The notes: generated from the letters alone by a model not told the origin. 64,000 bases of DNA from Escherichia coli (GCF_046105845.1 NZ_CP151004.1); one strand, 5' to 3'; shown: positions 59,089 to 60,833, counted from the first letter of the stretch. A program made the numbers and translations.

Positions 59089-59100
59089 ATGTTGACATCC

Positions 59101-59122
59101 TCCACGCCCTGAAGGACGTGGA
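59101..59122. repeat. IS subterminal hairpin at the tnpB-proximal end
   Basis: tccacg-CCCTGAAGGA-cgtgga; partner hairpin ccccg-CCCTGAAGGA-cgggg at 60804-60823 with identical loop on the same strand. Confidence 0.6.
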
Positions 59123-59134
59123 TCCCTGCTACGT

Positions 59135-60343
59135 TCAGGCTGTCGCCTGAATCATTTCGGTGGGTTCCTGCTTCAACGAGCGGCCTGACTGCACCATCTC
59201 TCCACAGGCAAGAACGGCGTGCCCCGCCGCTAAAATGTTACGAGCGCCGTTTACATCGGCGTTCGCTGTATATCCACATGCCTGGCATCTGAATTGACTT
59301 TGTGACAGGCGATTTTCTTTCGCTGTATGACCACAGCACGCGCAACGCTGGCTTGTGTACGCTGGCGGAACAGCAAGCACCTGACCGCCACGCCAGAGCT
59401 GCTTGTACTCAAGCTGGCGGCGCATTTCATACCAGCCCTGATCCTGTATCGAACGGTTTAAACCTGATTTTGCCCGGACATTGCGCCCCGGCTGGCTGAC
59501 CGTACCCGCTGCTGACTTTGACATGTTGCTGACCTTCAAATCCTCAATGACTATCATTGCGTGGTTTTTGCTGACGGTCGTTGTGACTTTGTGAAGGTAG
59601 TCCCTGCGGATATTTGCGATACAGGAATGCAGTCGCTGTATTTTGCGTTTCTGCTTCTGCCAGTTGTTGCTGAATTTGACCTTGCGGCTTAACTGTCGCT
59701 GAAGTCTCGCCAGCGTCTTCTGGTTTTTCTGAAAACTGTTTACAGGCCCAAAGACTGTGCCATCTGACAGCGTGGCGAGTTTAGCCACGCCAGCATCCAG
59801 CCCGACCATTGATGCTGAAGGGTGAACCGGAGTTGATACTTCATTTTCAGTCTGAATACTGATGTACCACTTACCGCAGGACTGGCTGACAGTGACATTT
59901 TTCACAACACCCGTGACCTGACGGCTATTCCGGTAGCGCATACAGCCAAGTTTCGGCAGAAAAATACGGCTGTTTTCCTGATCGAGCTTAACGCCCTGCG
60001 GGTAGCGGAATGCATCATTCTGTCCCCGCTTTTTGAATCGGGGAAAAGCAGCCCGCTTCTGGAAGAAGTTTTTGTAAGCCCGCTCAAGGTCTTTCAGTGA
60101 CTGTTGCAATGGCTGTGACGGGGCATCTTTAAGCCATTGCGTTTCAGTGGCATTTTTCCACTCAACCAGCCAGGAAGCCATTTTCCCGTAAGGGATGTAT
60201 TTATTACCGGCCTCATGATTCTCATTCTGAAGCGCCAGAGCACGATTGAAAACGAAACGACATGCGCCTGCGAAGCGCCTCATTTCACACTCCTGTTGAC
60301 CACCTGGTCTTAACTGGAATTTAAATGCCTGTAATCGTTTCAC
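59135..60343 (-). CDS. tnpB: TnpB (IS605 OrfB family; RuvC-like RNA-guided endonuclease family)
   Basis: 402-aa intact ORF with C-terminal zinc ribbon ([37 protein letters not shown]) and RuvC-like motifs; GTG start at 60341-60343. Confidence 0.9.
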
Positions 60344-60350
60344 AGGTCAA

Positions 60351-60782
60351 ATGATACTTTGGTCTATGAAAAAAGAAACCGATATCCGGCGTGGAAAGCA
60401 TTGTGTTTTCCTGATGCATGTTCACCTGGTCTTTGTCACCAAATACCGACGCCAGATTTTTGACCATGACGCGAAAGAAAAACTACGCACTTACTTTTCA
60501 AAGGTATGTGCTGATTTTGAAGCTGAACTGGTTGAAATGGATGGCGAACCAGATCACGTCCATTTGTTAATTAACTATCCTCCCAAACTGGCGATATCCA
60601 GTCTGGTAAACAGCCTCAAAGGCGTATCGAGTAGGTGACTGCGACGAGATCGACCAGATATTGCAGTCAGGTATTACTACAAAGGCGTTTTGTGGAGTCC
60701 TGGCTATTTTGCCAGTAGCTGCGGAGGTGCGCCAATATCCGCCATCCGTCAATACATTGAACAACAGCAAACACCTGGTTAG
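60351..60782 (+). pseudogene. tnpA: IS200-type Y1 (HUH) transposase TnpA interrupted by an in-frame TGA at 60636-60638
   Basis: N-terminal part has the HUH motif (PDHVHLLINYPPKL); the same frame continues after TGA as LRRDRPDIAVRYYYKGVLWSPGYFASSCGGAPISAIRQYIEQQQTPG, carrying the expected C-terminal catalytic Tyr region. Confidence 0.75.
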
Positions 60783-60803
60783 GTGGAAAACCGCGCCTTA
60801 TAT

Positions 60804-60823
60804 CCCCGCCCTGAAGGACGGGG
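60804..60823. repeat. IS subterminal hairpin at the tnpA-proximal end
   Basis: ccccg-CCCTGAAGGA-cgggg followed by TTTT; about 10 bp from the inferred IS end. Confidence 0.6.
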
Positions 60824-60833
60824 TTTTACGGCG

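Follow-up and report, generated by a model that had tools for sequence, protein, structure and literature searches.

A full-length IS609 with an interrupted tnpA and an intact tnpB in the ytfA pseudogene of Escherichia coli

A 64,000-nucleotide stretch of an Escherichia coli genome (GCF_046105845.1, NZ_CP151004.1), hereafter called the window, carries at positions 59092-60839 a copy of the known and catalogued E. coli insertion sequence (IS) IS609, a member of the IS200/IS605 family. The explanation that accounts best for the data as a whole, and that we hold to be very probable, is that a full-length IS609 entered the ytfA pseudogene a single time long ago and has been inherited with the locus ever since, that its transposase TnpA is now defective, and that its TnpB is predicted to pair with a ωRNA encoded by the same element. 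IS609 itself, its occupation of ytfA in many E. coli (O157:H7 among them) and the general mechanism of TnpA and TnpB are already on record, and the case carries little weight as a discovery; what is added here is the name IS609, the exact ends of the element, its TTTAT target, a predicted guide, a nonsense codon in tnpA, and the sharing of the insertion by about one-third of complete E. coli genomes.

Identity, ends and terminal hairpins

That the element is IS609 and has the anatomy described below, taken as one joint claim, is practically certain. Compared with the annotated K-12 feature 'insertion sequence:IS609' (1503161-1504908, 1748 bp), the window showed 97.6% ungapped identity over 1756 nt, with 41 nucleotide differences falling within the 1748-bp element. 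By the usual ISfinder criterion, an element is assigned to a named IS when its nucleotide identity to the reference is at least 95%, a value that the observed identity exceeds. The PGAP label of the tnpA located at the same ytfA site in O157:H7 is 'IS200/IS605-like element IS609 family transposase', and the features of the IS200/IS605 family, namely a Y1 HUH TnpA, a TnpB, subterminal hairpins on one strand and insertion with no target duplication, were all found. An earlier note on this DNA, made from the sequence alone, had described an IS200/IS605-family element with an intact tnpB in ytfA, between ytfB and yjfZ, and the empty-site alignments agree with that description.

The top strand of the element is the minus strand of the window, with its left end (LE) at 60839 and its right end (RE) at 59092. 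Alignment of two empty sites (K-12 MG1655 and AF40) with two occupied ones (O157:H7 and strain 1190) gave ...CTGATATG and ATAAACC... as the two sides of the insertion, leaving a single base ambiguous, and this ambiguity was settled because the K-12 IS609 is annotated as 1748 bp with a defined start and end; at ydcL-ydcO it starts with CCGGTGCGCC straight after TTTAT and finishes with ...GGATGTCAA. The same ends, CC(A/G)GTGCGCC...GGATGTCAA, were found at four independent loci (ytfA, ydcL-ydcO, yedK and hslO-yhgE), and since the K-12, yedK and hslO-yhgE copies share them, the complete IS609 of the window spans 59092-60839 on the minus strand, that is, 1748 bp, which rests on the empty-site alignments and on the match to the K-12 IS609. 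The span first proposed for it, 59089-60833 (about 1745 bp), had thus caught the right element, with ends that the empty-site comparison shifted by 3 bp on the left and by 6 bp on the right.

LE (60783-60839, minus strand) is conserved with the left end of the K-12 IS609 and contains a subterminal hairpin at 60804-60823, reading CCCCGTCC-TTCA-GGGCGGGG on the minus strand; as single-stranded DNA, LE folds at -16.7 kcal/mol (z = -3.4). RE (59092-59134, minus strand) contains a corresponding hairpin at 59101-59122 (TCCACGTCC-TTCA-GGGCGTGGA), terminates in ...GGATGTCAA and is identical to the K-12 IS609 right end, with divergence beginning right after TCAA at four loci. The two hairpins, subterminal imperfect palindromes of the kind that the family has in place of terminal inverted repeats, lie on the same strand and share a 14-mer core, CGTCCTTCAGGGCG, which occurs at these two places only in the 64-kb window (0.03 expected by chance). 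They fold precisely at the positions given in the earlier note, whose 10-nt loop has to be corrected to a tetraloop that reads TTCA on the minus strand and caps a stem of 9 or 8 bp. Both hairpins of the window copy are fully paired; the right ends of O157:H7 and SW07099 carry single uncompensated substitutions (at positions equivalent to 59105 and 59119), by which one pair of the RE hairpin is broken.

The transposon-adjacent motif (TAM), or target, TTTAT adjoins LE on its 5' side at 60840-60844 (minus strand; ATAAA on the plus strand). TTAT was invariant 5' of LE at six independent insertion sites (TTTAT at three, CTTAT at one and GTTAT at two), made up of the four IS609 loci, which share TTAT followed by CC(A/G)GTG...GTCAA from junction to junction, and of two phage-contig sites. 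In K-12 and AF40 the empty site has the sequence TTTAT-CA(C/T)ATCAG, where the hyphen stands for the insertion point, and the occupied site is without any duplicated bases; insertion with no target duplication, as proposed earlier, was thereby confirmed for this locus.

The ytfA site and the interrupted tnpA

The upstream fragment of the ytfA pseudogene lies at 60840-61133 on the minus strand (98 codons, ending in ...LGLVY) and is equivalent to K-12 b4205, an annotated pseudogene, while the downstream fragment (HISMVSPQ...ARE and a stop) lies at 58984-59091 on the same strand and overlaps the ytfB stop region. When rejoined, they encode a complete TetR_C_29 domain (PF17938, E = 3.5e-26) and nothing else, a helix-turn-helix or DNA-binding N-terminus being absent, and ytfA was a truncated TetR pseudogene before the insertion occurred. 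Because ytfA is a pseudogene in K-12 and holds the TetR C-terminal domain alone, the element resides in a gene remnant and not in a working gene. The in-frame rejoining of the two halves had been noticed from the sequence alone, and the 13-residue junction peptide proved identical to that of K-12 ytfA; the absence of an IS from this locus in K-12, stated in the same note, was seen in the empty site of MG1655. Element-free genomes showed a contiguous ytfA without the extra 1.7 kb whose presence the note had named as telling against an insertion.

Of 5426 complete E. coli genomes, 3250 (~60%) gave a contiguous match to a query spanning the empty site, and 1745 (~32%), O157:H7 and O111:H- among them, matched a 120-nt query across the RE-ytfA junction. 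With that many genomes occupied, the insertion is a common polymorphism, for which 'strain-specific', the term used previously, is too strong. Insertion point and orientation were identical in O157:H7, strain 1190 and the ~1745 complete genomes, with 98.6-99.0% identity to the window copy. In six comparisons the divergence within the element (1.0-2.5%) tracked that of the flanks (1.05-3.0%), in keeping with a single old insertion passed down together with the locus; the similar divergence of IS and flanks also led us to reject the alternative of recent, independent insertions at ytfA.

The transposase gene tnpA, encoding a Y1 HUH transposase, occupies 60351-60782 on the plus strand (143 codons) and is interrupted by an in-frame stop, with the NCBIfam model transpos_IS200 (NF033573) matching both halves (residues 1-95, E = 1.4e-30). 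It is homologous to the TnpA structures of IS608, ISDra2 and Sulfolobus, with the HUH motif at H69/H71 and with Tyr135 aligned to the catalytic Tyr in the QYIE(N/Q)Q motif of IS608. The stop is a TGA at codon 96 (60636-60638, plus strand), produced by G in place of T at 60637, where intact copies have TTA (Leu). The HUH motif lies upstream of it and Tyr135 downstream, so that a truncated TnpA would be without the catalytic residue. The divergent Y1/HUH tnpA of the earlier note is thus present, in a form that is not intact. Strain 1190 and O157:H7, both with TTA at codon 96, have a tnpA coding sequence annotated as intact at this site, and TTA was read in all six readable complete-genome ytfA copies versus TGA in the window copy. 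The possibility that the TGA is a sequencing artefact was rejected, as 58900-61100 is identical in the independent draft assembly GCA_018024015.1 and the allele is present in thousands of copies. Among complete E. coli genomes, the best match to the window reached 98.8%.

With its TnpA truncated, the window copy should not excise or transpose alone, and we regard it as very likely non-autonomous. The alternative that it is still autonomous, low-level read-through of the UGA at codon 96 yielding some full-length TnpA, draws on the stop being UGA followed by C, which, from work of Poole and colleagues in 1995, is reportedly the weakest termination context in E. coli. It also draws on the abundance of the TGA allele, which amounts to 3369 IS609 copies in 2725 complete E. 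coli genomes, with up to four per genome and three or more loci, meaning that TGA copies have either moved or been converted. This spread is, however, equally explained by mobilisation in trans from copies with the TTA allele, of which there are 6337 in 3884 complete E. coli genomes, or by gene conversion, as the copies are mosaic; read-through would moreover place Trp where Leu/Ile is conserved; and the K-12 IS609, which has the same codon-96 TGA (the yncK pseudogene), contributed none of the 758 new IS insertions in K-12 mutation-accumulation lines (PMC5009759). Autonomy through read-through is consequently improbable in our judgement, and the non-autonomous state of the copy is retained.

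The allele counts come from a 34-mer test in which only exact codon matches can seed. The loci with TGA include ydcL/ydcO (K-12), yedK (SW07099) and ytfA (window lineage only). Among the five IS609 copies compared, the TTA/TGA difference at codon 96 was homoplasic, and the copies were mosaic at other positions as well. Conversion between IS609 copies is a plausible source of the TGA in the window, where the polymorphism nearest to it (60630) retains the ytfA-type base. A further idea, which we rate a little lower even than autonomy through read-through, is that codon 96 acts as a recurrent on/off switch, toggled by mutation or conversion and selected to throttle the transposase, in which leaky UGA-C may give trace TnpA while TnpB-ωRNA holds the copy in place.

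tnpB and the predicted ωRNA

In contrast to tnpA, the RNA-guided nuclease gene tnpB (insQ; 59135-60343, minus strand) is intact, with a GTG start and 402 residues. Its product matched NCBIfam guided_TnpB (NF040570) with E = 3.5e-115, and alignment to the ISDra2 TnpB structures 8bf8/8exa (E = 3.4e-52) set its RuvC triad, D183/E267/D363, opposite D191/E278/D361; a CxxC...CxxC zinc finger is formed by C334, C337, C353 and C356. Both results bear out the 402-residue TnpB with zinc ribbon and RuvC-like motifs that had been read from the sequence alone. The ratio of nonsynonymous to synonymous change (pN/pS) of tnpB was 0.19-0.57 versus four other IS609 copies and stayed below 1 in all ten comparisons, although each is based on just 14-29 substitutions per pair. 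Across eight ytfA copies examined, tnpB was intact in six versus two for tnpA.

At ytfA, the decay of the IS609 copy takes different forms in different lineages. Of the five copies from XJ5.2, SL112, O111:H- 11128, 361 and EC10, four have a truncated or frameshifted tnpA. At the hslO-yhgE site (e.g. in JJ1887) there is a 1500-bp IS609 derivative, in which most of tnpA is lost to an internal deletion and both ends are retained along with an intact insQ. IMG/VR phage contigs hold 1336-bp tnpB-only relatives (TnpB identity 91-93%) inserted after GTTAT; with an IS609-like left end 84 nt upstream of tnpB and no tnpA, these are non-autonomous derivatives on predicted phage or prophage contigs.

A predicted ωRNA scaffold overlaps the 3' end of tnpB and RE (59092-59238, minus strand; the 5' boundary is not fixed). 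Three Rfam models matched here, on the minus strand only, namely HgcC at 59079-59202 (24.6 bits, threshold 50), sot0042 at 59101-59262 (19 bits, threshold 88) and RAGATH-18 at 59165-59208 (29.5 bits, threshold 44.9). Published work places all three families at tnpB 3' ends: one study notes a UUCA tetraloop, as seen here, and gives an E. coli K12 example of a sense-overlapping transcript RNA (sotRNA), with data for such a transcript at a K12 tnpB (PMC4615843), and another deals with RAGATH-18 (PMC11061315). As RNA, the stretch folded with z = -3.57, better than all 200 shuffles. A consensus structure built on 48 related loci from phage contigs (22 sequences after duplicate removal) comprised 54 pairs, six of them with compensatory changes, and included a long-range helix (59233-59238/59095-59100), and similarity stopped sharply after GTCA(A/C) in every relative. 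Further, in seven of eight usable comparisons tnpB codons 341-402 showed less synonymous divergence than codons 1-340 (e.g. 0.00 versus 0.20, and 0.39 versus 0.72). A ωRNA predicted at the tnpB 3' end and RE thus has good indirect support. Following the TnpB/ωRNA architecture described in 10.1101/2023.03.14.532601, its guide would be the ytfA flank read through from RE, CATATCAGTATGGTTTCACC (59072-59091, minus strand); the same 20 nt stand directly after TTTAT in the empty-site allele of AF40.

In the model established for the family, TnpA makes two cuts in the top strand, one following the TAM at LE and the other following TCAA at RE, and so releases a single-strand circle; the donor joint is resealed, whereupon TnpB-ωRNA, with a guide taken from the RE flank, cuts the joint via the same TAM and repair from an occupied sister copy restores the element (10.1101/2023.03.14.532601). 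Applied to the window, the copy would be movable only if another, intact IS609 in the same cell supplied TnpA in trans; this TnpA would act on the subterminal hairpins of the minus (top) strand, both of which are intact, in a single-strand 'peel and paste' manner and leave TTTAT-CATATCAG... as the excision donor joint. tnpB and an overlapping transcript ending at RE would form a TnpB-ωRNA nuclease whose guide is the adjacent ytfA sequence CAUAUCAGUAUGGUUU..., the predicted matching target of tnpB with its 3' region being TTTAT-CATATCAGTATGGTTT. Such a nuclease would cut the empty TTTAT-CATATCAG... ytfA allele, whether present as an excision donor joint or as an incoming empty allele, and repair from the occupied copy after the cut would favour retention of the insertion. 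As to whether this copy has an active TnpB-ωRNA, we lean slightly towards activity.

Several points weigh against that view, in addition to the small numbers of substitutions behind the pN/pS values. At ytfA, strain 361 has a frameshift in tnpB, and in O111:H- the gene is split by IS1203, so that retention of tnpB is not obligatory. All three Rfam matches fall below the gathering scores of their models, and covariation in the terminal hairpin is equally explained by recognition of single-stranded DNA by TnpA. A scan of the element for sigma-70 promoters and terminators yielded nothing above shuffled controls, and we accordingly assign no promoter to tnpA, to tnpB or to the ωRNA. The step with TnpA in trans is a proposal made from the window sequence, and the intact IS609 tnpA that it calls for would lie outside the window. 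In the published assay the TnpB of the Helicobacter pylori IS608 was inactive (10.1101/2023.03.14.532601), so an intact tnpB is no guarantee of activity. In the literature searched, the function of IS609 or InsQ met with catalogue-type mentions only, and no biochemical study or activity data for IS609 TnpB were found.

These points lead to the strongest competitor, that the copy is an inert fossil, in which tnpB has stayed open by chance and is unexpressed or inactive, and in which the insertion is kept by vertical inheritance in a neutral pseudogene. A position in a pseudogene would entail no cost; tnpA, and in some cases tnpB, has decayed in varied ways in the same-site copies of other lineages, tnpB for example in strain 361 and O111:H-; IS609 never moved in the K-12 mutation-accumulation lines; the inactive IS608 TnpB provides a precedent; and no promoter-like signal rose above chance. 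On the other hand, chance alone sits poorly with the 6/8 versus 2/8 intactness of tnpB and tnpA, with pN/pS below 1 throughout, with the retention of every catalytic and zinc residue of TnpB, with the compensatory pairs and the added constraint on nucleotides seen at the 3' end of tnpB, and with the sense-overlapping transcript in the K12 tnpB data. We therefore consider the fossil rather unlikely, yet by some distance the most credible of the alternatives.

It is far less probable, indeed hardly credible, that this TnpB has been domesticated for a host role, for instance RNA-guided repression of ytfB or yjfZ in the manner of nuclease-dead TnpB-like regulators. The emergence of RNA-guided transcription factors from TnpB is documented (PMC10705468), and the age of the insertion and its wide retention speak for such a role. 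Against it, the TnpB here retains its RuvC triad, which sets it apart from nuclease-dead domesticated forms; the two ends of the transposon are intact as well; its sequence is that of an ordinary InsQ allele of IS609, found at other loci too; and in some lineages tnpB is disrupted at ytfA. Accounting for the copy as an IS609 whose TnpA is truncated and which may keep a working TnpB-ωRNA is thus preferred.

On this reading, the locus illustrates a common pattern in which the gene for the RNA-guided nuclease outlives that for the transposase. It offers a clean natural presence/absence polymorphism, with about 32% of the genomes occupied and about 60% contiguously empty, and the guide predicted from the ytfA flank has a natural matching target in the empty TTTAT allele; because of this polymorphism and this predicted guide with its natural target, ytfA is suited to testing TnpB-driven retention in E. 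coli's own genome.

Other features of the window and comparison with known systems

Outside the IS609 copy the window runs colinear with K-12 4424828-4487152, and that copy is accordingly the sole IS in it. The earlier note had called it the only mobile or accessory element; the K-12 colinearity upholds the first half of that statement and chpSB contradicts the second, as the toxin-antitoxin pair chpS-chpB (MazF-like), an accessory-type module, lies at 38061-38662 on the minus strand, as in K-12. Two intergenic segments, 2722-2816 (pepA-holC), which contains a CCCTCTCCC-TAA-GGGAGAGGG hairpin, and 26621-26793 (nrdG-nrdD), were not aligned to K-12 by megablast; both are too short for IS elements. 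An above-threshold Rfam match to naRNA4 (63.6 bits), which we take to be a REP-derived RNA, lies at 36077-36153 on the minus strand; the mobilisation of REP sequences has been attributed to IS200/IS605-like tyrosine transposases. Further above-threshold Rfam matches in the window were a magnesium riboswitch (19605-19720), an RpsF leader (63708-63792), Ysr276, ES239, STnc450 and ES036.

Among the closest known counterparts is the IS609 of K-12 MG1655 at ydcL-ydcO (the yncK/tnpA pseudogene and insQ), with the same length, ends, hairpins and divergent tnpA/tnpB layout, and likewise with TTTAT as 5' flank and TGA at tnpA codon 96. It occupies another chromosomal site, so its would-be guide flank differs from that of the ytfA copy.

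IS608 of H. pylori, which serves the family as its model in structure and mechanism, has a homologous TnpA (E = 5e-20), the HUH motif and the C-terminal QYIE(N/Q)Q tyrosine motif being common to both, and resembles the window element in its subterminal hairpins, in an RE ending in TCAA and in inserting, with no duplication, on the 3' side of a short AT-rich motif. IS608 has TTAC as target and TCAA at its right end. The two differ in that tnpA and tnpB are in tandem in IS608 and divergent here, as in IS605, and in that the target here is TTAT/TTTAT and not TTAC.

With the TnpB-ωRNA of ISDra2 from Deinococcus radiodurans (PDB 8exa/8bf8/8h1j), the window TnpB aligned over residues 3-376, with the RuvC residues and the zinc finger kept, and in both elements the guide RNA, which is predicted in our case, overlaps the tnpB 3' end and RE. 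The alignment differs by a 15-residue insertion after RuvC-II, and the TAM of ISDra2 is TTGAT, versus TTTAT here. The same TAM as here, TTTAT, is that of ISGst2 and its GstTnpB2 from the distant host Geobacillus stearothermophilus, and GstTnpB2 is the experimental basis of the model of donor-joint cleavage and retention (10.1101/2023.03.14.532601).

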